64,000 nt of DNA from Dehalococcoidia bacterium (lineage in GTDB: Bacteria > Chloroflexota > Dehalococcoidia > Lucifugimonadales > UBA1127). The stretch's first letter is position 1, and each line of letters starts with the position of its first letter. The notes beneath the pieces were generated by a model. That model was given only the letters and a program-made list of their open reading frames with translations, was not told the DNA's origin and made no database searches. The stretch lies in contig OZ252225.1 of assembly GCA_965249315.1 (NCBI GenBank), positions 1,255,973 through 1,319,972 on the forward strand, in the 5' to 3' direction. Position numbers and translations under genes: made by a program. Positions 1,901 through 64,000 of this stretch are shown here, piece by piece.

Positions 1901-3190
1901 TCAGGCGGCGGGGGGCTCGATGGTGGCGAAGCCAGTGTAGGGCTGCAGCTCTTCAGGGATGGCCACGGAGCCGTCCTCCTGCTGGTAGGTCTCCAACAGG
2001 GCGACCATGGTGCGGGGCAGAGCCAGGCCGGAGCCGTTCAGGGTGTGGACAAACTCGGGGCGCGCACCGGGACCGGGGCGGTACCGGATGTTCGAGCGGC
2101 GGGCCTGGAAGTCGGTGCAGGTGGAGCAGGAGCTGACCTCCAGCCACTCACCGCACCCCGGCGCCCATACCTCGATGTCGTAGGTCATGGCGGAGGGGAA
2201 GCCCAGATCGCCGGCGCAGAGCTGCAGCACGCGGTAGGGCAGGCCCAGCCTCCGGCAGAGCGACTCGGCGCTGGCGACCAAGCGCTCCAGGGCCTCCTCG
2301 GAGTGCTCCGGCTCCACGAAAGAGTACATCTCCACCTTCTGGAACTGGCGCACGCGCTTGATGCCGCGGGTGTCCCGCCCGGCCGCGGCTTTCTCCCGGC
2401 GGAAGCAGGGCGTGCTGGCGACGTAGTTGATGGGCAGCGCACCCGGCGCAAGGATCTCGCTCCGGTGGAGGCTGGTCAGCGGGACCTCGGCGGTGGGGAT
2501 GAGCCACAGGTCCTCCTCGGCGTCCCGGTAGAGGTTGTCGCCGAACTTGGGGAGGTTGCCGGAGCCGACGAGGACCTCCTCCCGGACGAGGGCGGGGGGT
2601 TGGACCTCGACGTAGCCGCTCTCCCGAGTGTGGATGTCCAGCATCCAGTTGACCAGGGCCCGCTCCAGGCGTGCGCCCGCGCCCATGAGGACGAAGAATC
2701 GGGAGCCGGACAGCCTGGCGCCGCGCTCCAGGTCAAGGATCCCCAGCCGCTCCCCCAGATCCCAGTGAGGCTGTGGCTCGAAGGAGGGCGTGGGCCGCTC
2801 TCCCCACTCTCGCACGATGGTGTTGGCGGACTCGTCCAGGCCGTCGGGGACCTGGGGCAGGGGCAGGTTGGGAAGGCCCAGCAGCAGCTCCTGAAGCTGG
2901 CCCTCCACCTGGGCCGCCTCCTCCTCCAGGCGAGCGGTGCGCTCTGCTACGGCGGCGATGTCGCGGCGCAGGTCAGCCAGGGCGTCCTCGCCGCCTTCCT
3001 GCCGGAGCGCGCCAAAGCGGCGGCTCAGCTCGTTGTGTTGGCCCCGAAGCGTGTCTCGCTCGGTGACAAGAACGCGACGGCGGGCGTCCATCTCCGCCGC
3101 CTGCAGGACCGCCTCGGCGTCCTCGCCGCGGCGCGCGAGGGCCTGCTGCACCATGTCCTGCTTTCTACGTATGAGGTCAAGGCTGAGCAT
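1901..3190 (-). CDS. serS: serine--tRNA ligase
   Basis: LIPTAEVPL, CFRREKAAAGRDTRGIKRVRQFQKVE, EVSSCSTCTDFQARR, HTLNGSGLA. Confidence 0.97.
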   Translation of the reverse strand: MLSLDLIRRKQDMVQQALARRGEDAEAVLQAAEMDARRRVLVTERDTLRGQHNELSRRFGALRQEGGEDALADLRRDIAAVAERTARLEEEAAQVEGQLQELLLGLPNLPLPQVPDGLDESANTIVREWGERPTPSFEPQPHWDLGERLGILDLERGARLSGSRFFVLMGAGARLERALVNWMLDIHTRESGYVEVQPPALVREEVLVGSGNLPKFGDNLYRDAEEDLWLIPTAEVPLTSLHRSEILAPGALPINYVASTPCFRREKAAAGRDTRGIKRVRQFQKVEMYSFVEPEHSEEALERLVASAESLCRRLGLPYRVLQLCAGDLGFPSAMTYDIEVWAPGCGEWLEVSSCSTCTDFQARRSNIRYRPGPGARPEFVHTLNGSGLALPRTMVALLETYQQEDGSVAIPEELQPYTGFATIEPPAA

Positions 3191-3199
3191 CGGCGCACG

Positions 3200-4864
3200 T
3201 CACCCTTTCCGCTCTTCTGCCGAGCTTGCCACGCGGCTGCGGAGCTGGTCCTCCGTGATGCGGACCTGGAGCTCCCGGGGCAGCGCGGCCTTCACGCGTT
3301 CCATAAGTGTCTCCACCGGGAGGAGGCCGTCAGCCGTTATGGCCGCGACCTGCTGGTCCACGGCACGAAAGAGCTCCTCCTGGGACCAAGAGAGGTGCGG
3401 GAAGAGCAAGACCTCTCTGATGGAGGGCTGGCCGCTGAGCACCATCACCAGCCGGTCGATGCCAATGCCGAGGCCGCCCGTTGGGGGCATGCCGTACTCC
3501 AGGGCGGTGAGGAAGTCCTCGTCCAGGCGGTCGAACTCCTCGTCACCGTGTCGGCGGCGGAGCTCCTCCTGCTCCTGGAAGCGGCTGCGCTGCTCCAGGG
3601 GGTCGTTGAGCTCGGTAAAGGCGTTGGCGATCTCCATCCCGCCCATGAAGGCCTCGAAGCGCTCCACGTAGCTGGGGTCGTCCGGCTTCGTCTTCGCCAG
3701 GGGAGACATCTCGACAGGGTAGTCGACGAGGAAGGCGGGCTGTACCAGCGTGGGCTCCACCCTGTCGGACAGGAGCTTGTCGACTAGGCGGCCCCAACTC
3801 ACCTCCTGGGTGACCGGGACGCCCATCTCCCGCATGCGACGGGCCAGGGCCGCGGCGTCCCGCAGCTCCGCGATGTCCACGCCGCTGTGCTCCAGCACCG
3901 CGCTGCGGAGGTCGATGCGGGGCCAGGGGGGCTTCAACTCTATCGTCTGGCCCTTCCAGGTGATCACGGTCGTGCCCAGGACCTCCTGGGCGACGGTGGA
4001 GACCATATCCTCCACCATTCGCATGACGTCGGTGTAGTCGGCGTAGGCCTCGTAGCTCTCCAGGAGCGTGTACTCGGGGTTGTGGTCGGCGTCCAAGCCT
4101 TCGTTGCGGAAGACGCGGCCTATCTCAAATACGCGCTCCAGGCCGCCGACGATGCACCGCTTGAGGTAGAGCTCGATGGCGATGCGCAGGTAGAGGGTGC
4201 GGTCCAAGGCGCTATGTCGCGTGACGAAGGGCTGGGCCATGGCGCCGGCAGGCACGGGCACCAGCATGGGGGTCTCCACCTCCACGAAGCCGCGACCGAC
4301 GAGGAAGCGGCGGATGGCGTCGACGACGCCGCTGCGGAGGAGGAAACGCTCCCGGACCTCCTCATTGGACAGAAGGTCGGCTTCACGCTGGCGGAAGCGC
4401 TGCTCCACGTCTCGCAGGCCGTGCCACTTCTCCGGGGGCGGACGCAGGGCCTTGCTAAGAAGCATGACCCTGTGGGCCTCGACGGTGGCCTCGCCGGTGC
4501 GGGTGCGGAAGACGGGGCCCTCCACGCCCAGGATGTCGCCAAGGTCTAGATCCTTCAGCAGGCCATAGGCCTCGCCTAGGAGGTCCCTGCGGAGCTGGGC
4601 CTGAAGGCGGCCAGCGCCGTCGCGCAGGTCGAGGAAGGCTGTTCGACCCATGACGCGCTGGGCCATGATTCTTCCGGCTACGACCACGGGCTGGGAGCGG
4701 GCCCCCGGGCCGCCTTCGTCCTCCGCGGCCTGGAGCTCCCGTGCCGCGTCCACGGCCGTATGCGTCCGGGGAAAGCGTGGCGGATAGGGGTCTACGCCGG
4801 CGTCGCGAAGACGTAGGAGTTTCTGGCGTCGGACCTGAACCTGCTCCTCGCGGCGGTCAGCCAA
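3200..4864 (-). CDS. lysS: lysine--tRNA ligase (class II) with C-terminal extension
   Basis: PPPEKWHGLRD, LYLRIAIELYLKR, FRNEG, EIANAFTELNDP, YGMPPTGGLGIGIDRLVM. Confidence 0.97.
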   Translation of the reverse strand: MADRREEQVQVRRQKLLRLRDAGVDPYPPRFPRTHTAVDAARELQAAEDEGGPGARSQPVVVAGRIMAQRVMGRTAFLDLRDGAGRLQAQLRRDLLGEAYGLLKDLDLGDILGVEGPVFRTRTGEATVEAHRVMLLSKALRPPPEKWHGLRDVEQRFRQREADLLSNEEVRERFLLRSGVVDAIRRFLVGRGFVEVETPMLVPVPAGAMAQPFVTRHSALDRTLYLRIAIELYLKRCIVGGLERVFEIGRVFRNEGLDADHNPEYTLLESYEAYADYTDVMRMVEDMVSTVAQEVLGTTVITWKGQTIELKPPWPRIDLRSAVLEHSGVDIAELRDAAALARRMREMGVPVTQEVSWGRLVDKLLSDRVEPTLVQPAFLVDYPVEMSPLAKTKPDDPSYVERFEAFMGGMEIANAFTELNDPLEQRSRFQEQEELRRRHGDEEFDRLDEDFLTALEYGMPPTGGLGIGIDRLVMVLSGQPSIREVLLFPHLSWSQEELFRAVDQQVAAITADGLLPVETLMERVKAALPRELQVRITEDQLRSRVASSAEERKG

Positions 4865-54940: not shown

Positions 54941-55030
54941 GAACTCCTGGTAACTAGGGCACGGCCCCCAGACCCCCGCGCCCTCACCCGCCGCTGTGCG
55001 GCGGCCTCTCCCCCAGGAGAGGCGGGAGGC
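54925..55030 (+). repeat. intergenic palindromic mosaic repeat
   Basis: GGTAACTAGGGCACGGCCCCCAGACCCCCGCGCCCTCACCCGCCGCTGTGCGGCGGCCTCTCCCCCAGGAGAGGCGG, near-identical to about 55733-55798. Confidence 0.82.
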
Positions 55031-55590
55031 TACCGCACGACCATTTCCACGGACGCGCAGCCGGACAGCACGCTCTCGAGTGCGTCCGCCTCGGCGCGGT
55101 CGATGGTGAGGGCGTACTTCTGGCGCACCTGGACGACGCGGTCTGCGAACCAGCACCTGTTCTGCTGCGGCAACCACTCCGCCGCGTCGTAGGCCCGCTT
55201 CTGCTCCCGGTTGACCTGCGGGGCCGCCAGCGTGAGGTTGAGGACGTCGGAGACAAAGCGAGCGCGAGTCTCGTCGCTGGCGGCGCAGAGGCCGCTGTCG
55301 TGGGCCTCGGAGCGGGCGACGATGTGCTCGATGTCCGTCTGCCGCATGTTCGAGAACCGGCGGCCCGTGTACGGCCCGTAGATGACGCCGCCCATGCCTG
55401 CGACGATGCGAGGCTCGACGGACTGGGGGTAGGAGTAGTCGTCGGAGTCGTAGGGGGAGCAGCGGTCTTCGTCGGCGACGGTCAGGCCGCGCCAGGTGGC
55501 TGCGGGAGCGGGGCCATCTTCGTCTGGCGGCGCGGTGCAGGCGGCCGTCCATGCGAGAGCACCCAGGACAAGGACGAACAGCAGTCTCAC
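55030..55590 (-). CDS. secreted lipoprotein, HNH-type (DUF1524-like) nuclease
   Basis: Lipobox TAAC, YGPYTG, TDIEHIVARSEAHDSG, NLTLAAPQVNREQK, DAAEWLP. Confidence 0.75.
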   Translation of the reverse strand: MRLLFVLVLGALAWTAACTAPPDEDGPAPAATWRGLTVADEDRCSPYDSDDYSYPQSVEPRIVAGMGGVIYGPYTGRRFSNMRQTDIEHIVARSEAHDSGLCAASDETRARFVSDVLNLTLAAPQVNREQKRAYDAAEWLPQQNRCWFADRVVQVRQKYALTIDRAEADALESVLSGCASVEMVVR

Positions 55591-55635: not shown

Positions 55636-55800
55636 TTGGGTGGGCCCACCCGGCGGCAGTGCCGCTCTTGCTGGGGTGTCGAGTCGCGGCGGAGTGTGGT
55701 CCTTCGAGAGACGGTGGTTGTCTTCTGGAGGCGCGGCCCCCAGACCCCCGCGCCCTCACCCGCCCGCTGTGCGGCGGCCTCTCCCCCAGGAGAGGCGGAT
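55636..55800 (+). repeat. intergenic palindromic mosaic repeat
   Basis: TTGGGTGGGCCCACCC, GCGGCAGTGCCGC, TGGTCCTTCGA, CGGCCCCCAGACCCCCGCGCCCTCACCC, GCCTCTCCCCCAGGAGAGGC. Confidence 0.82.
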
Positions 55801-55850
55801 GCGCACTGGGTGACCGGAAGGGGGAGGGGGCCTGCAGGGGACAATCGTAG

Positions 55851-55927
55851 TGGCGACCCGGAGGGGATTCGAACCCCCGATCTCCGCCTTGACAGGGCGG
55901 TATGTTAGGCCACTACACCACCGGGCC
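55851..55927 (-). tRNA. tRNA-Asp (GTC)
   Basis: Acceptor stem GGCCCGG/CCGGGTC, anticodon arm CCGCC-CTGTCAA-GGCGG, T-loop GGTTCGAATCC, encoded CCA end. Confidence 0.97.
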
Positions 55928-56000
55928 GCGTGTCTCCGTCGAACGGTCTGACGCCGTGGCGCTCAGACCTGGACGTGTCGTCTTGTGAATCGAGCGCCGG

Positions 56001-56708
56001 TCACCTGCCGGCGTCGAGCTGCTCCTTCTGCCATGCGTAGTCGACCTGGCCCTCGTAGAACCGGTCGGGGTTTTCCACCGCCCATATCTGCTTACGTATG
56101 ACGTAGTTGTCCGGTTGCACGGCGACCCCGCGCCGCCACGCCGCTACGGCCTCGTCCACCCTGCCCTGCCGGTACAGGCCCAGCCCTTCCCGGTAGTGCT
56201 CCAGCGCCTCGCCTGCGACGTCGTCTGCGCCCCCCGTCGCCGCGCCGTCGACGGAGGCGCCGGCGGCCCAGCTTTCGGCGGCCTGCGCGTACTCGGGTTT
56301 ACGGATGTCGAAGCCGCCCCGCTTGATGTACCGGACGACCCCGTCAGCGTCGACGAAGACGGTGTTGGGGATGGCCTTGCAGTCGAAGAGCTGGCCGAGG
56401 ACGTTCTCCCCATCGACGACCGTTGGGAAGGTGGCCGCGGCCTTTTCGACGTAGGGACGCGCCTTGTCGGGGCCCTGGGCGTCGACGGCTACGGAGAGGA
56501 CCTCAACGCCCTTCGACTGGTGCCTCTGGTAGTAGTCCTGCCAGACCGGCAGTTGCTCGCGGCAGGCTCACCAGGAGGCCCACATGAAGAGGACAAGCTG
56601 TTTGCCTCGATAGGAATCGAGGGCGACTTCGCCGCCGTCCAAGGACTGCAGTGTGAGTGGGGGGAGCACCCCTCCCACGCCCACGCTCGTTTCGTACTGG
56701 ACCGCCAC
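56001..56708 (-). CDS. predicted selenoprotein: TlpA/ResA-like thioredoxin fold with WASW-U-AC and a C-terminal TPR-like helix pair (235 aa)
   Basis: Manual translation from GTG 56708 gives ...LDSYRGKQLVLFMWASW*ACREQLPVWQ...AIPNTVFVD...NYVIRKQIWAVENPDRFY; the single in-frame TGA (56568-56570) sits at the redox site and is followed by the hairpin CTGCC-GGTCT-GGCAG. Confidence 0.88.
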
Positions 56709-56753
56709 AGCTTCTCTCCGGGGTAGGTTTCTGCGAGGTCGACGACCTCGCGG

Positions 56754-56987
56754 CTAGTAGGCTCAGCCCACGCCGCCGTAGCCGACGGTGACGAGCTCGC
56801 CCTCGATGATGACGGGGGTTATGCGCTCTCCGCCCGTGAGCCGCTCCAGCTCCTCGGTGGCGCCGTCGACGAGTGTGACGTCGATCTGCTTGAAGGGGAT
56901 GCTGTCCTTCTGCAGGTCCGCCAAGGCAGCCTGGGAGTAGGCGCAGTCCGGGTGCGTGTAGATGGTAAGCGTCGTCTCCTGGGTCAC
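56754..56987 (-). CDS. predicted selenoprotein: glutaredoxin-like UXX-star-type protein ending GYGGVG-U-A-Y-stop
   Basis: IYTHPDCAYS...RITPVI; TGA (56763-56765) is followed by GCC TAC TAG and then the hairpin GCGAGGTC-GTC-GACCTCGC. Confidence 0.85.
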
Positions 56988-57171
56988 GGCATCACCTCGT
57001 ACAGGGGCTGAAGTTCCAGTGTACCCGTGCGGGCGGCTCTCGTAAAGGCGGCACTGCCGGCGGCCAGCCGCCCTAGCATGGGCCTACGCCGTCACGCCTG
57101 GTGAGCTGTGGGAGCAGATGGCGTCGAGGTTCCACTGCCTGCGCAGAAACGACGTGACGACTTTGGGGGTG

Positions 57172-57387
57172 CTAGTGCCCCATGTCGATGCGCTTTTCGC
57201 CGGAGAGGTAGGCTTTCGGCTCCTTGGAAAAGGCGACACGGCAGCCGGGCCCGCAGAAGTAGTAGGTGACGCCGTTGTGGTGGTGTGTGCCGCCGGGAGG
57301 TTTGCCGACGTCGACCTGCATGTGGCAGACGGGGTCCTCCGCGCGCTCCTTCTTGCCTCCCAGGACTCCGAGGATCTTGCCTATCAT
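57172..57387 (-). CDS. YHS-domain metal-binding protein
   Basis: EDPVCHMQVD, GVTYYFCGPGCRVAFSKEPKAY; AGGAGG RBS. Confidence 0.9.
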   Translation of the reverse strand: MIGKILGVLGGKKERAEDPVCHMQVDVGKPPGGTHHHNGVTYYFCGPGCRVAFSKEPKAYLSGEKRIDMGH

Positions 57388-57534
57388 GGATGCTCCTCCT
57401 GTGTTCTGTCTCGCTGGAGTTCGTGGCGGGAGTAGGCCAGGGGTTGTGCCGTCGAATCTTAGCATAGGTGGCGCTCCCCAATACACCGAGGCTCCTAAGC
57501 CACGGTCTTGTCTTGACGACCCGGTCCGTGCGGT

Positions 57535-60500
57535 CTAGCCGTTACAGAAGGGAAGGGCCACGTCATCGAAGTCGTGCCCGGGAACGGACCTCAACGCTGC
57601 CGGTATGCAGCCGGCGAGCTGGTTGCCGCGAAGATGCAGGCTGTCCAAGCCGGCAAGGTTGCCCAACTCCGGCGGAATCGGCCCGCTCAACCGGTTTTCA
57701 TATAGGTACAGCTCTTCCAAGTTTGGAAGGTCGCCCAGATCAGGTGGTATCAGCCCGCTCAGCTGGTTACCACCGAGGCTCAGATAGGAGAGTCTTGAGA
57801 GGGCGCCCAGCCATGCCGGTATCTCGCCGGTCAGTTGGTTTCCCCAGAGGACCAAGCGTTCCAAGTTGGCCAGCTTCCCCAGTCCCCCTGGTATCTCTCC
57901 GCTCAACTGGTTCTCATTGAGGTGGAGCTCTTCCAAGTTGGAAAGGTCGCCCAGACCAGGTGGTATCGGCCCGCTCAGCTGGTTCTTGCTAAGGTCCAAG
58001 TAGCCCAGGCCGGAGAACCGGCCCAGCTCCGGCGGTATCGGCCCGCTCAACTGGTTCTTGCTAAGGTCCAAGTAGCCCAGACCGGAGCCCTGCCCCAGCT
58101 CCGGCAGTATCAGTCCGCTCAGCCCGGAGAGCTGCCCCAGCTCCGGCGGTATCAGCCCGCTGAGCTGGTTGCCACCGAGGTTCAGATAGGATAGTCCTGA
58201 GAGGGCGCCCAGCCACGCCGGGATCTCGCCGGTCAACTGGTTCTCCGAGAGGTCCAGGCGCGCCAAGCCGGCGAGCTTCCCCAGCTCCTCCGGTATCTCT
58301 CCGCTCAACTGGTTTCCGCTGAGGTCCAAGTAACCCAGGCCGGAGAGGTTGCCCAGCTCCGGCGGTACGGGCCCGCTCAACTGGTTCCCGCTCAAGTCCA
58401 GTGCGACGACGGAACCTTCACAGTCGGCGATTACCCCGTGCCATTCGTCCAGCGGGGCGTCGCTCAACCAGTTCTCGCTGTTCTCCCACCCAGGGCCGTT
58501 GGTAGCATTGTAGACCGCTACCAATGCGTTTCTTACCTCGCTCGAAGGCGCGGCCCTGGGTGCAGCGGTATAGCCGGCAACCGGTCTTCCGTGAAGACAG
58601 TGGTACAGGAGACGGAACTCATCCTGCTGCGATGGCGGGGTGTTCCTCAGCAACGTCTGGTATATCTTGTCTTCCGTCGTCCTTTCGTAGCTACGGGTCT
58701 CGTACAACTCCCGTAGGGCAAATGATACAACCTCATGCCCCAAGGCATGATGCAGTCCCGCCAGGAAGTGAGTGCCCAGCCAATACGGGCACCGACGCGG
58801 CGTTCCGTCATCACCAATTAGGCTCAACCCGGAATCGGCCCACCCTTGAATATTCGTCACACCGAAGGGATCGCAATCCTCAGCAATCTGCACCTTCAAA
58901 GCCAAGTGGGCCGCCCGGAAGGAGATTTCGCCTCCGGCCGCCTTCAAAGCAGTGTAGTGCGCCACGAAATTCGCCCCTCCTTCAGTTAGCCAAGTCGGAG
59001 TGCGGGTTCCCCAGTATGAGGAGAAGTAGAAGTGTGCCACCTCGTGGTGAACCACAAAGTTGGTCGGTTGCTTGAGGAGCAGGTGAGTCCCATAGTTCAG
59101 ACCCAGACCCCTGAACGAGGACCCGTGGTGTTCGGTTTCCACCAACATGATGACATCGGACTTTGGCCACGGTGTCCCCAGGAGATTCTCCGACTGCTCG
59201 GCGGCGAGGGCCGCCGCGTCCAGCGCGTTTTGCAACCAGAACCCCGACCTTCCGACCGCGAACAGGTCCACCTCGCCGGCCAGGGGAAGAGAAATCGTTT
59301 CCGGCCACACCTGGCCGTTCTGTGCCAGGTCCTCAAAGAGCGCCTCGGAAGGAGCAACACTTCGCAGCGTGACTACCAGCGCCGCCTCCTCTGCGGTCAG
59401 GCCGTCCTGCGCCCAGGGCTGACTCAGGATCCACTCCGCTCGTCCGGGGTAATGCGAGACCCGTCGCAGACTGGACGCCGTGTCCAGCATGAGGCTCCCC
59501 GTCCGGTCCGGAATGGTCGTAACCACGGCGGCTGCTTCCTGCCAGTTGGCGGTCAAGCCAAAGAGATCGGACAGTGCCTGGAGCTCCTCTTCGGTGACAC
59601 CATCCGAGAGCCACGGCGCGGCCACAACTCGCTGAGCAATTGCAGAGTCAATCCGCTCGAAAGCTCGAATGTGACCGTCTGCGAGTCTCTCGTTATCGGT
59701 GAGGCCGTCCTGCACCCACGGCAGCCGCCCCTTGCTAAACGGTGAGACAGTAACGGCCACCCCGTTGGAGCAATTGTTGGTCGTGTTCGTCTCGCCGGAC
59801 GCCGGGTCTACACAGACGCCGTAGTGGTACGTGCCCGGCGCGGACGGCGCCCGCGTGAAGACGGACTCCGCGCTGCTGCCGGACACACTCAGCCTGGAAA
59901 CGTGGTCCCTGCCCACTTCGGCGTCGTCTGCCGTGACGGTGGCGTCGGTTGAGCGATAGTAGCGCAGCGTTGTGGGGCTGGAAGGTCCGTCTCCCCGGTT
60001 CCGTACCACGACGCTCAATGCCAGGTGTTGGTCCGCCATCAGGTCGCTGTCGCTCACCGTTAGCGGGTCCACCTCCAGGTCGGGCGGGGGTGGACGCACG
60101 CGAATGGCGAGGGCAGCGGAGCAGTTGTTGGTTGTGTCGGACTCGCTGGACAGCGGGCCCACGCAGACCCCGTAGTAGTACGTACCCGGCGCGGACGGCG
60201 CCTGCGTGACGAGCGACTCAGCGCTGCTGCCGGATGCATCCAGCCCGGAAATCTGCACCGTACCCAACTCGGGATCATCAGGGGTGATGGTGGAGTCGCT
60301 GGAGCGATGGTAGCTCAATGTCGTGGGACCTGAAGTCCCGTCTCCCTGGTTCCGTACGACGACGTTCAGCGTGAGGGACTGGTCCGCCATTGGGCTGCTG
60401 TCGCTCACCGTTAGCTGGTCCACCAGTAGATCGGACGGCGGTAGCACCACTGTGACGGCTACGGGACCGGAGCAGTTGTTGGTTACGTCGACCTCGCGGG

Positions 60501-61074
60501 GCAACGGCCCCACGCAGACGCCATAGTGGTACGTGCCCGGCGCGAATGGCGCCTGCGTGACGAGCGACTCCGTGCTGGTGGCCGATGGCGTGAGTCCGGA
60601 AATCTGCACCGTGCCCAACTCGGGATCATCGGGAGTGACGTTGGCGTCAGTGGAGCGGTGGTAGCTCAATGTTGTGGGGCTCGAAGGCCCGCCTCCCTGG
60701 TTTCGTACGATGACGTTCAGCATTAGGGATTGGCCTACCGTCGGGCTGCTGTCGCTGACCGTTGGCAGGTCCACCGTTAGGTCGGGCGGGGATGGCGCCG
60801 GGGTCGGTGTGGGCGGCACGGTTGGTATCGGCGTGGCAGTTGCGGTAGGCGAGGAAGCGGGACTGGCAGTCGGTGCGGGAGTGGGCGGGGGAGTCGATAT
60901 CAGGATTGATATCGGCGTCGGCGTGCCGACAGAAGCGAGCGGGGGCGGAGTGGGCTCATCTTCGCATGCTGACAGTAGTGCGGCAACGGCGGCGCAGGCC
61001 GCTACGAACACCGCACAGCGTATCAGGGTGCTCCGTAATTCATGGCGTTCAGAGTAAACCGGCCTGTTTGTCAC
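57535..61074 (-). CDS. large lipoprotein: Pro/Thr linker, three CARDB/Ig-like repeats, zinc metallopeptidase domain, plant-type LRR array
   Basis: Lipobox LSAC; three repeats of PDLxV...VRNQGxG...APxAPGTYxYGVCV...NNCS; HHEVAH...WLTEGGANF; about 11 LDLSxNQLSGxIPxELGxL repeats preceded by ALVAVYNATNGPGW. Confidence 0.92.
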   Translation of the reverse strand: MTNRPVYSERHELRSTLIRCAVFVAACAAVAALLSACEDEPTPPPLASVGTPTPISILISTPPPTPAPTASPASSPTATATPIPTVPPTPTPAPSPPDLTVDLPTVSDSSPTVGQSLMLNVIVRNQGGGPSSPTTLSYHRSTDANVTPDDPELGTVQISGLTPSATSTESLVTQAPFAPGTYHYGVCVGPLPREVDVTNNCSGPVAVTVVLPPSDLLVDQLTVSDSSPMADQSLTLNVVVRNQGDGTSGPTTLSYHRSSDSTITPDDPELGTVQISGLDASGSSAESLVTQAPSAPGTYYYGVCVGPLSSESDTTNNCSAALAIRVRPPPPDLEVDPLTVSDSDLMADQHLALSVVVRNRGDGPSSPTTLRYYRSTDATVTADDAEVGRDHVSRLSVSGSSAESVFTRAPSAPGTYHYGVCVDPASGETNTTNNCSNGVAVTVSPFSKGRLPWVQDGLTDNERLADGHIRAFERIDSAIAQRVVAAPWLSDGVTEEELQALSDLFGLTANWQEAAAVVTTIPDRTGSLMLDTASSLRRVSHYPGRAEWILSQPWAQDGLTAEEAALVVTLRSVAPSEALFEDLAQNGQVWPETISLPLAGEVDLFAVGRSGFWLQNALDAAALAAEQSENLLGTPWPKSDVIMLVETEHHGSSFRGLGLNYGTHLLLKQPTNFVVHHEVAHFYFSSYWGTRTPTWLTEGGANFVAHYTALKAAGGEISFRAAHLALKVQIAEDCDPFGVTNIQGWADSGLSLIGDDGTPRRCPYWLGTHFLAGLHHALGHEVVSFALRELYETRSYERTTEDKIYQTLLRNTPPSQQDEFRLLYHCLHGRPVAGYTAAPRAAPSSEVRNALVAVYNATNGPGWENSENWLSDAPLDEWHGVIADCEGSVVALDLSGNQLSGPVPPELGNLSGLGYLDLSGNQLSGEIPEELGKLAGLARLDLSENQLTGEIPAWLGALSGLSYLNLGGNQLSGLIPPELGQLSGLSGLILPELGQGSGLGYLDLSKNQLSGPIPPELGRFSGLGYLDLSKNQLSGPIPPGLGDLSNLEELHLNENQLSGEIPGGLGKLANLERLVLWGNQLTGEIPAWLGALSRLSYLSLGGNQLSGLIPPDLGDLPNLEELYLYENRLSGPIPPELGNLAGLDSLHLRGNQLAGCIPAALRSVPGHDFDDVALPFCNG

Positions 61075-61243: not shown

Positions 61244-61972
61244 TTATAGATGATCGGCCGCCTTGCCGGATACCTCTGCGACGATTCCGAAATGGTCCGA
61301 TAGCACTGCAGCACCTTGGATGTTGCCTAGCACGTGCAGGGACTGAACGACCAGGTCTTCGCTCAGGGCAATGTGGTCGATGCTCTCGCGTCCCCCGAAT
61401 GCAAGGCTCGACGTGGCAATGCTGACCGTGGGCGGGAAGGCCCCGAGAAGCGCCTGTCGCAACGCGGTGGGCGCACGGCCCTTTGCCCCGAGAGCCTGAT
61501 TGAAGTCTCCCATAATGAGCAGGCGCTTGGTAGGCGCCCGTGCGAGCACTTCCGTCAGACCCACCAGGTATTCCTCGTGGTCCTGCCACCGCCTCCGGCG
61601 CCCCGAATTGCGGCTGGCTTCGGTGCGCGATCCAAACCAAGGGATGCCGATGCCGATGACCGTGACTTCGCCAAGGGACGTTTGCGTGACTCCCGCTACG
61701 AATCGCCCAGGCGGCAGGGACTTGTTTCCCACGCAGTCGACCTGGGTCCACGGTTGTTGTGACCAGAGCACGACCTTCCGCCGGGTCTCCTTCGCCTCAT
61801 ACCCGTAATCCCTCTGAGCGGAGACTGTATGGCCTGACCGAGACAGCAGTTCCACATGTGTCTCAGTGAGACAGACAACCTCGGGAGAGTATCGCTCAAG
61901 ACGCCTCAGGAGTTCGTGGGTACGCCGTGAGGCGGGCGTCGCCCACTGGACGTTCCACGTTGCAACCCACAT
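61244..61972 (-). CDS. endonuclease/exonuclease/phosphatase family protein
   Basis: VATWNV, VCLTE, MGDFN, IDHI, LSDHFG. Confidence 0.88.
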   Translation of the reverse strand: MWVATWNVQWATPASRRTHELLRRLERYSPEVVCLTETHVELLSRSGHTVSAQRDYGYEAKETRRKVVLWSQQPWTQVDCVGNKSLPPGRFVAGVTQTSLGEVTVIGIGIPWFGSRTEASRNSGRRRRWQDHEEYLVGLTEVLARAPTKRLLIMGDFNQALGAKGRAPTALRQALLGAFPPTVSIATSSLAFGGRESIDHIALSEDLVVQSLHVLGNIQGAAVLSDHFGIVAEVSGKAADHL

Positions 61973-61976
61973 TGGG

Positions 61977-64000
61977 CTAGCCGGGGCGGAGGCGGCGGAG
62001 GCGCAGGGAGTTGCCGACGACGGAGACGGAGCTGAGGGCCATGGCCAGGGCCGCGAGGACGGGGTTCAGGAAGCCCCGGTCGCCGAAGAAGGGCTCAAGC
62101 CCACCGGGGACGCCGCCGAGGGTCTGGAAGAGGGGGTAGAGGGCGCCCGCAGCCACGGGGATGAGCAGGACGTTGTAGAAGAAGGCCCAGAAGAGGTTCT
62201 GTCGAATGGTGCGGACGGTGGAGCGGCTGAGCCGGAGCGCCGTGAGGACGCCCCGCAGGTCGCCGCGCATCAGGGTGACCTCCGCCGCCTCGACGGAGAC
62301 GCCGGCGCCGGTGCCCATGGCGATGCCCACGGAGGCCTGGGCGAGTGCGGGAGCGTCGTTGACGCCGTCGCCGACCATTGCCACCACCTGGCCCTCGTCC
62401 TGCAGGGCGCGAACCTGGGCGGCCTTGTCCTGGGGCAGCACCTCGGCGACGACGCGGTCGACGCTGAGCTCCCGGGCCACGGCCTCCGCCGTCCGCGAGT
62501 GGTCGCCGGTGAGCAGAACGACGCCGATGCCCATCTGCCGCAGACGTGCGACAACCTCGGCGGCCTCGGGCTTCAGCGTATCGGCGACGGCGAGGAGGCC
62601 CAGCGCCCGGCCGTCGGCGGCGACGAAGACGGCGGTGACGCCGCGAGCGGAGAGCTCCTCCCACCGCGCCTCCAGGCCGTCGAGGGGGATGCGGTGGGAC
62701 TCCATGAGGGCCCGGTTGCCGATGACGACCTGCCGGCCATCGACCGTGGCTTCGACGCCCAGGCCGGGCGCCGCCTGGAAGTCCTGCGGCTCGGCCAGAG
62801 CGATCCCCTCGCTGCGGGCTGCTTCGACGATGGCCTCGCCCAGGGCATGCTCCGACGCTCGCTCGGCCGATGCTGCGAGACGCAGGACCTGCTCGCGGTC
62901 GTCTGCGGGGACGACGTCGGTGACGGTGGGCGTCCCGCGGGTGACCGTGCCGGTCTTGTCCAGGACGACCGTCGTCACTCGGTGGGCCTGCTCCAAGGCC
63001 TCTGCGCTGCGGACCAGTACGCCGTACTCGGCGCCCTTCCCAATGCCCACCATGATGGCGGTGGGCGTGGCGAGGCCCAGGGCGCAGGGGCACGCGATGA
63101 TGAGGACGGTCACAAAGGTGAGCAGCGAGTAGGTCAGGGAGGGCTCAGGGCCGAGCATCAGCCAGAGGAGGAAGGAGAAGGAGGCGACGGCGATAACCGC
63201 CGGCACGAAGTAGGCAGCGACCCTGTCGACAAGCCGCTGGACGGGGGCACGGGAACCCTGGGCGGTCTCGACGAGGCGGATGATCTGGGCGAGGACGGTG
63301 TCGCGGCCCACCTGGGTGGCCTGGAAGGTGAAGCTGCCGGTGCGGTTGAGGGTGGCCCCGAAGACCCTGTCGCTCGGCCCCTTCTCGACGGGCATGCTCT
63401 CGCCGGTGAGGGTGGACTCGTCGAGGGTGGAGGCGCCCGCGGTCACGACGCCGTCGACGGGCACCTTCTCGCCGGGGCGCACTAGCACGAGGTCGCCGGG
63501 CACGACCTCCGCGATGGGCACGTCCACGGCGTCGCCATCGCGCTGGACGCGGGCGGTCTGGGGCTGGAGGCCCAAGAGCGTGCGAATGGCCTCCGAGGTG
63601 CGGCCCTTCGCCCGGGCCTCGAGGAGGCGTCCGAGGAGGACGAGGGCGATGATGAGGGTGGAGGTGTCGAAGTAGACGCCGATCTCCACGCCGCGGTCGG
63701 CAAAGAAGCCGGTGAAGAGGGTGACGGCGACACTGAAGAGATAGGCGGTACTGGTGCCCAGGACGATGAGGGTGTGCATGTTGGCGGTGCGGTGTCGCAG
63801 GGCGCCCAGGCCGGAGACGTAGAACTGCCAGCCCGCCCAGAACTGGACGGGCGTGGCCAGGGCCCAGAGGACGTACCAGTCCTGCAGGAAGGCCGGGACC
63901 CAGGGGAAGAGGTCCGGCATGCTGCCCAGCAGGACCGCAAGGCCCAGGAGACCCGCGACGGCGAGACGCCTCTGCAGGCCGCGGATTTCCGCCGTGCGGG
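61977..64000 (-). CDS. copA: Cu(I)-translocating P1B-type ATPase (5' part outside the window)
   Basis: [46 protein letters not shown]; the frame stays open to the window edge. Confidence 0.95.

Follow-up and report, generated by a model that had tools for sequence, protein, structure and literature searches.

Why two small genes that each carry an in-frame UGA codon should follow one another on the minus strand of a Dehalococcoidia chromosome, and whether their products belong together, is the question raised by positions 55851-57387 of the window, by which we mean the whole stretch of 64,000 nucleotides analysed here (contig OZ252225.1 of assembly GCA_965249315.1). Gene 1 (56754-56987, 77 codons, GTG start) encodes a glutaredoxin-like selenoprotein of UXX-star family 2 (NF041211, PF00462), and gene 2 (56001-56708, 235 codons, GTG start) a ResA/TlpA-like selenoprotein with a thioredoxin fold (PF00578, PF08534, NF041054). 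The 45-nt spacer between them (56709-56753) contains a hairpin, GCGAGGUC-GUC-GACCUCGC, with a perfect 8-bp stem and a GUC loop (56733-56751, minus strand, recognised by folding and covariation), as well as the ribosome-binding site of gene 2, GGAGAG (56714-56719), 5 nt ahead of the GTG start (56706-56708). All of these features, from which a sequence-only reading had deduced an operon of two selenoprotein genes, are indeed present. We are highly confident that these are two real selenoprotein genes of known families in a conserved cassette, and within Dehalococcoidia this two-gene cassette recurs. That the two products form a redox relay is a more tentative proposal, and alternatives to it have to be weighed.

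The genome, a single 2.28-Mb contig, encodes the full machinery for insertion of selenocysteine (Sec), with a tRNA-Sec of anticodon TCA (71.1 bits), SelA (557 bits), SelB (349 bits, neighbours in frame) and SelD (388 bits; G000:C1:122706-123626, outside the window). Since the selD homologue carries one in-frame TGA of its own, SelD of this genome itself appears to be a selenoprotein. It could be argued that the UGAs at our locus are ordinary stops or lesions, such that gene 1 would encode a 74-residue glutaredoxin-like protein and gene 2 would be a broken redoxin gene. Gene callers and most public records treat the two codons in this way, and most of the listed gene 2 homologues are 5'-truncated, at 132-193 aa. 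However, all of the loci examined have kept TGA at the two sites, the protein sequence encoded after it is conserved too, both hairpins covary, the Sec machinery is complete and gene 1 passes a curated selenoprotein model. We therefore give the ordinary-stop explanation almost no credence. Both products require SelB-dependent recoding, and both should therefore depend on selenium supply. Without Sec insertion the product of gene 1 loses just the residues U-A-Y, with 74 residues left, while gene 2 yields a fragment of 46 residues.

By its profile scores gene 1 belongs to UXX-star (seleno)protein family 2. When its U is replaced by C, it reaches 106.7 bits against NF041211 (cut-off 100), for which a six-frame search of the genome, where the stop is not scorable, gives 99.7 bits, and 92.9 bits against the parent model NF041212 (cut-off 66). 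PF00462 matches at 31.3 bits. The Sec codon TGA (56763-56765) is followed by GCC TAC and the true stop TAG (56754-56756), so that Sec lies three residues from the end of a C-terminus reading G-V-G-U75-A-Y-stop, and the active-site motif is C15-A-Y-S18. In an alignment of 29 proteins, Cys15, Ser18, T57-P58-V59, G72, G74 and U75 are invariant. A sample of 41 genomes of the window's order (the window's own included) gave a strong match in 32 of them, each with one in-frame TGA, and all 30 UXX-star loci that were compared from this sample end in G-x-G-TGA-x-[FYW]-stop. Likewise, TGA occupies the identical position in 80/80 loci of a second sample, centred on UXX-star in metagenomes. Family 2 and gene 1 have in common the glutaredoxin fold, the G-x-G-U-x-x-stop end and a Sec insertion sequence (SECIS) element after the real stop, with no structural difference between them. 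The family is listed in a passage of the review PMC13188914, which credits it to Haft & Tolstoy 2025, mSystems. One natural Cys form was seen, in locus L122 (2723-2935), where a UXX-star protein ending in G-I-G-C-N-F is encoded directly upstream of a Sec-form gene 2, before tRNA-Asp.

The start of the gene 1 hairpin lies 11 nt beyond the UGA and 2 nt beyond the true stop, and the hairpin is thus intergenic; effectively it is a 3'-UTR element. Every one of the 30 order-level loci has a hairpin just past the real stop whose loop contains G-U. Two-sided changes occur in 7 of the 8 stem pairs in the alignment of these loci, amounting to 35 cells as opposed to 13.6 +/- 3.0 in shuffled alignments, none of 500 of which reached 35, and 79.7% of stem cells are paired compared with 36-54% after a shift of the 3' partner by 1-3 columns. 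Since two visibly misaligned rows (L030 and L032) were left in, these figures, if anything, disfavour the structure. The z-scores from single-sequence folding are unremarkable (-1.26, 0.01 and -0.42); because such energies are not distinctive, it is covariation that argues for the hairpins. An Rfam scan gave no match to a SECIS family, with tRNA-Asp the only hit above gathering.

The second hairpin, CUGCC-GGUCU-GGCAG (56538-56552, minus strand), recognised by codon constraint and covariation, begins 15 nt after the UGA of gene 2, inside the coding sequence, where it lies within the codons for Q-L-P-V-W-Q. Its Leu codon is CUG or UUG in 84/84 distinct sequences, as opposed to 53% (825/1553) of the other Leu codons in the same genes. 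The closing pair, formed by base 1 of the Leu codon and base 3 of the Gln codon, is C-G in 69 sequences, U-A in 7 and U-G in 6, and C-A in none (n=82). As this pair covaries at synonymous sites, the constraint acts on the RNA and not on the protein. Both hairpins resemble the SECIS of E. coli fdhF in that they begin 11-15 nt after the UGA, and the loop G and U fall at about positions 23-26 from the U of UGA, which we take to be their place in fdhF as well. Unlike the fdhF type, the element of gene 1 is positioned past the true stop, in intergenic RNA, an arrangement that is the hallmark of the 'star' families and not of classical bacterial selenoprotein genes. A GCC codon after both UGAs, to which the sequence-only reading had drawn attention, is true of the window, but it is not conserved: the codon following UGA varies among relatives, so GCC was rejected as a signal and looks like chance.

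What kind of protein gene 2 encodes is less obvious from the curated models. It contains PF00578 (AhpC-TSA, 72.2 bits), PF08534 (Redoxin, 63.5 bits) and one TPR-like repeat (TPR_2, 26.6 bits, just under the gathering threshold of 27), and its motif F-M-W-A-S-W-U47-A-C49-R places Sec and Cys one residue apart; the Sec codon TGA (56568-56570) is followed by GCC TGC CGC and 188 more in-frame codons. TGA is present at this position in 80/80 loci of a third sample, centred on gene 2 with one genome per species. The best NCBIfam match is NF041054 (ResA-like WAxxUGC motif-containing protein), at 143.7 bits well below its cut-off of 300. Gene 2 aligns to positions 84-195 and 275-330 of this 354-position model, the first 83 of which are without counterpart. 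The frame upstream of the start of gene 2 is closed within 45 nt, and the start position agrees with the ATG start of a homologue from the same genus (L045). The 14 residues ahead of the redoxin domain contain no hydrophobic segment, no signal peptide and no extra N-terminal domain, and the product, having neither signal peptide nor membrane anchor, is presumably cytoplasmic. That relative's gene 2 (L045 of G001, 654-1448) changes frame after residue ~125, with its TPR-like part in another frame (two tblastn pieces), a change due either to an error in assembly or to a frameshift in a pseudogene.

Gene 2 and NF041054 have in common the thioredoxin fold, the W-A-x-x-U-x-C motif, a conserved C-terminal TPR-like region and a SECIS loop of the GGUCU type, but gene 2 has 235 residues and is without the N-terminal signal and extra domain of the model. 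The model has Gly between U and C where gene 2 has Ala; both are common in the short form, with Gly in 42 and Ala in 36 of 84 distinct sequences when the eight commonest codons are counted. In combining pfam00578 with U-x-C, gene 2 agrees with the definition of the 'Prx-like (UGC-containing)' selenoproteins, for which Table 2 of Zhang & Gladyshev 2008 (PMC2398784) gives pfam00578 and 46 sequences. By these comparisons gene 2 is a short form, free of a signal peptide, of the known UGC-type ResA-like selenoproteins. The best matches outside the selenoproteins are ResA (73.8 bits, cut-off 170), StoA (55.4, cut-off 210) and TlpA (49.9, cut-off 230), all below threshold. These proteins are extracytoplasmic and have a CxxC motif, in contrast to gene 2 with its U-x-C motif that is one residue shorter, its lack of anchor or signal peptide and its TPR tail. 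In an alignment of 11 sequences, the C-terminal 60 residues are the best-conserved part of the protein, with W191, R192, P199, N201, K206, Q207, W209, A210, P214, F217, Y218, V222, D223, W226, Q227 and Q230 invariant.

The loci of the gene 2-centred sample come mostly from Dehalococcoidia/SAR202 metagenome-assembled genomes (MAGs), the remainder from other Chloroflexota, Latescibacterota, Planctomycetota, Gemmatimonadota, KSB1, Poribacteria and Armatimonadia. Outside Chloroflexota (L126-L139), the genes reach 130-190 codons further upstream to include a signal peptide and an extra domain, and hence have the long form that NF041054 models. Among the best 120 homologues of gene 2 listed, 117 span 49-80% of the query (132-193 aa), which is consistent with gene calls that start after the UGA; three short sequences that were inspected do start at or after the UAC/UGC motif. 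NCBI calls such short records, among other things, 'redoxin domain-containing protein' or 'TlpA family protein disulfide reductase [Chloroflexi bacterium]'. Among six sequences inspected, two full-length homologues have the UGA read as Trp, with W at the Sec position. Since the short form fails the curated model and its records are mostly cut at the UGA or, in those two cases, have UGA read as Trp, it is probably missed in counts of Dehalococcoidia selenoproteins. A natural Cys form of gene 2 exists as well (P0117, 298 aa, W-C-T-C), and one homologue (L095, ~3001-3666) has TGA at both redox positions, W-U-G-U-R, and may represent a form of the U-x-C motif with two selenocysteines.

Do the two genes travel together? 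The sequence-only reading had made its proposal depend on conservation of the adjacency, and in this it was borne out: the pair recurs across related genomes and in many different flanks. Gene 2 lies directly downstream of UXX-star, on the same strand, in 13/30 order-level loci. When coordinates are compared, 15 of the 20 genomes of the order with a gene 2 orthologue (E below 1e-40, one TGA) have it adjoining UXX-star; the other five have the genes on different contigs (two genomes) or have no family-2 UXX-star (three). In the species-level sample, where 79 of the 80 loci are informative and one is too short, UXX-star is found directly upstream on the same strand in 38, with 46-228 nt between the matched stretches. 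The paired genes always have the same strand, the same order and short gaps. Sorted by upstream flank, the 38 paired loci form 15 unrelated groups; the 33 that have enough downstream flank form 10 downstream groups. That the pair stays together while its flanks change argues for selection on adjacency. In the largest downstream group (20 of the 33 paired loci), gene 2 is followed on the same strand by a gene resembling a short-chain dehydrogenase, a likeness judged from its N-terminal glycine-rich motif alone; in L077 (3704-4489) its start is 2 nt beyond the gene 2 stop. In these lineages the cassette may have this gene as a third component.

One explanation for the conserved arrangement would be that translation of gene 2 is tuned through the 45-nt spacer, either by SelB bound to the hairpin of gene 1 or by the efficiency of UGA read-through, as the sequence-only reading had suggested. 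The hairpin ends 13 nt ahead of GGAGAG, and a ribosome or SelB at this place could in principle occlude or open the site. However, the distance from the stop of gene 1 to the start of gene 2 is 45-203 nt in most of the related loci (two outliers have a closer first possible start), and once the species-level distances are added, the spacing spans at least a fivefold range, about 45 to about 230 nt. Moreover, the hairpin has the same form where gene 2 is absent, no alternative pairing between hairpin and ribosome-binding site is predicted, and each gene is often found on its own, gene 2 in 40/79 loci and gene 1 in most. Tuning of this kind is thus very improbable, and this part of the earlier proposal did not hold up.

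A more appealing scenario is that the adjacency reflects cooperation of the two products in a redox relay, which we favour over the other readings, on the analogy of related redoxins, although it is somewhat less likely than not. According to this reading, gene 1 and gene 2 would be co-transcribed and their products would act on one another, or on a common client, by thiol/selenol exchange. In the likeliest scheme, the C-terminal Sec75 of gene 1 would pair with Cys15 as a selenenylsulfide, and the U47-x-C49 centre of gene 2 would reduce or form the Sec75-Cys15 bond, its conserved TPR-like tail perhaps serving as docking surface. The active-site Cys of a glutaredoxin fold has next to it the segment that follows the last strand, and for this reason Sec75 on its Gly-rich tail can plausibly reach Cys15, whether for a selenenylsulfide or for a two-ligand soft-metal site. 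Each of ResA, TlpA and StoA is a reductant dedicated to a single client; the copper chaperone ScoI and CoxB are reduced by TlpA. This is the source of the model of one redoxin with one dedicated client that is used here, and because these relatives serve single clients, gene 2 is a natural candidate partner for the Sec75-Cys15 bond.

With regard to co-transcription, the pair has the signature of an operon, with both genes on the same strand, separated by a short gap and kept adjacent across changing flanks. An assembled contig of 306 nt from a sponge metatranscriptome (X16 record 15) corresponds to 56686-56990 and hence takes in gene 1, the entire spacer with its hairpin and the first 23 nt of gene 2; another RNA-library contig corresponds to 56714-56934, and one of 346 nt (X15 record 6, 56559-56904) bridges both genes, although the RNA nature of that run is merely guessed. 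Further RNA-library contigs cover gene 1 and gene 2 separately; the gaps in coverage at 55968-56191 and 57032-57199 have no bearing on the question. The contigs are compatible with read-through of the gene 1 hairpin and co-transcription.

Several points weigh against the relay. The RNA-library contigs were assembled, from four runs, and cannot prove a single transcript and may contain DNA; a scan of 55700-57600 for promoters and terminators found no sigma-70-like promoter and no intrinsic terminator. Many loci have one gene alone: 15 of the 32 order genomes with UXX-star are without a gene 2 orthologue at E <= 1e-20, no UXX-star occurs within 3 kb in the 40 unpaired gene 2 loci mentioned above (in one further locus it is 958 nt away), and gene 2 is present in just 11 of the 64 metagenome loci that are informative, with at least 400 nt downstream. 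The pairing is confined to the short form, as UXX-star was never found near the long secreted forms of other phyla. The copper gene copA, to which we return below, is upstream in just 14/80 metagenome loci and in 2 of the 30 of these that have at least 3 kb of upstream sequence. Finally, tRNA-Asp is a steadier neighbour of UXX-star than gene 2 is.

This last point gives rise to another explanation, namely that the genes function independently and that their adjacency is an inherited order around tRNA-Asp in one class of bacteria, gene 2 having been inserted between UXX-star and the tRNA gene. In the window, tRNA-Asp(GUC) (55851-55927, minus strand; ARAGORN, Rfam 63.6 bits) follows the gene 2 stop at a distance of 73 nt. 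It is present in 20/30 order-level UXX-star loci and, at a limit of 450 nt, on the same strand 32-399 nt downstream of UXX-star in 49 of the 57 informative metagenome loci without gene 2; gene 2 sits between UXX-star and tRNA-Asp in a subset of loci. Within the window's family, flanks are common to loci with and without gene 2, as is the case in the sister genus g6, and each gene is often found without the other. Since no neighbour of UXX-star is steadier than tRNA-Asp, inherited synteny may account for part of the adjacency. However, synteny does not readily account for a pair that is kept in 15 upstream and 10 downstream contexts, most of them without tRNA-Asp (the largest downstream group, of 20 loci, having the short-chain dehydrogenase-like gene instead), nor for strand and order that are constant and gaps that are short. 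We consider it quite unlikely that inherited order is the whole explanation. An RNA-library contig of a relative (X17 record 19) joins UXX-star and tRNA-Asp with no gene 2 between them.

If the pair is a relay, its surroundings could hint at the client. Upstream of gene 1, at a distance of 184 nt, lies a YHS gene of 71 codons (57172-57387, minus strand; PF04945, 35.7 bits). The YHS protein was considered as a member of the YHS selenoprotein family and rejected, as it has no in-frame TGA and no NCBIfam match. A copA-like P-type ATPase gene (61977-63998, minus strand; E1-E2_ATPase 200.9 bits, Hydrolase 133.2 bits) runs past the window end. The sequence-only reading had described tRNA-Asp on the same strand and YHS and copA upstream; this is accurate for tRNA-Asp and YHS, but copA is not contiguous with YHS, from which it is 4.6 kb away with two unrelated genes intervening, one for an LRR/CARDB protein of 1179 aa (57535-61074) and one of the Exo_endo_phos (phosphatase) family (61244-61972). 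Elsewhere the association is tighter. The order copA-YHS-UXX-star-gene 2-tRNA-Asp is found in a relative (G007, loci L060/L142), which suggests, as far as gene order can tell, that the window locus is derived from this arrangement by the insertion of two genes between copA and YHS. YHS homologues occur upstream of UXX-star in 14/30 order-level, 11/80 gene 2 and 12/80 metagenome loci. A P-type ATPase with an HMA domain lies directly upstream of YHS/UXX-star, or of gene 2 itself (L067), in 13 gene 2 loci, and upstream of UXX-star on the same strand in 5/10 wider contexts, in two of which a MerR-family regulator stands in between. In some lineages, including the ancestor of the window locus, the cassette would thus have been attached to a copA-YHS (and MerR) copper-export cluster, and because of this attachment the client or signal may be copper-related. 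The link to copper, speculative when first made, therefore gains from copA-YHS-pair clusters in about a dozen loci, but these are a minority.

The same context can be read without any relay. Cys15 and Sec75 of gene 1 and the U-x-C of gene 2 could be ligands for Cu(I) (or Hg/Ag) that pass metal to, or buffer it for, the YHS protein and CopA. CxC and CPC motifs bind Cu(I) in CopA. Beyond the gene order in about a dozen gene 2 loci, the HMA-domain ATPases in half of the wider contexts, twice with a MerR-family regulator, and the copA directly upstream of gene 2 in L067, this explanation can draw on the review PMC13188914, passages of which mention a Cu/Zn efflux transporter selenoprotein with a UxC motif and regard the Sec of UXX-star proteins as a possible metal ligand. 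However, copA accompanies UXX-star in few loci, as the metagenome and upstream counts given above indicate, it is parted from YHS by two unrelated genes in the window, and both folds are classical thiol-oxidoreductase folds. On balance we find a purely metal-handling role unlikely, without dismissing it. A bolder combination of relay and copper would make the pair a dedicated selenium-based copper homeostasis module of marine and sponge-associated Dehalococcoidia, in which a C-terminal selenolate arm on the glutaredoxin scaffold would bind or give up Cu(I), or repair copper-oxidised thiols of YHS and CopA, and the cytoplasmic TlpA-like selenoenzyme would recycle the arm, recognised by its TPR-like tail. 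This conjecture is rather improbable, but if true it would mean that selenium and copper handling are directly connected in bacterial function, and would provide both families with a client, the first to be proposed for them.

How much of this is new? Gene 1 belongs to NF041211 and gene 2 to a known kind, the UGC-type ResA-like selenoproteins, so the two genes are not the novel, unannotated ones that they had been taken for. Each gene alone is ordinary for a selenoprotein-rich Dehalococcoidia genome. What the locus adds is modest but testable, namely that the two families recur as a pair, that gene 2 has a short form missed by the curated model and that a minority of loci have a copper context. 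To our knowledge, no function or client has been assigned to UXX-star proteins or to UGC-type ResA-like selenoproteins. From their recurrent pairing on one strand, both families gain a partner that can be tested, the first for either, and the copA-YHS-MerR context, in the minority of loci that have it, provides a testable physiological setting. The side-by-side arrangement of the two families appears undescribed so far: no description of the pair was found in the literature searched, a search outside which Haft & Tolstoy 2025, the source paper for family 2, falls, and the terms sought are not mentioned in Peng et al. 2016 (PMC5029168). Dehalococcoidia MAGs rank among the selenoprotein-rich bacteria according to a passage in the description of BSepDB (PMC13326102).

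Other features of the neighbourhood touch neither gene. The LRR/CARDB protein encoded at 57535-61074 has three CARDB domains and a long C-terminal array of leucine-rich repeats; RNA-library runs that contain part of this stretch are labelled sponge metagenome, and an LRR protein of 517 aa is also encoded close to the pair in a relative (L145). On the other side of the locus, direct repeats of ~68 nt (54958-55025 and 55730-55798; 100% and 97% identical over two 35-nt blocks) bracket a 186-codon gene for a GmrSD_C-like endonuclease (55030-55590), just downstream of tRNA-Asp. Both repeat copies give sub-threshold matches to the Rfam family whalefall-1 (28.4 and 17 bits, gathering 37), and the whole has the look of a small insertion, or of a dispersed repeat, next to the tRNA gene.

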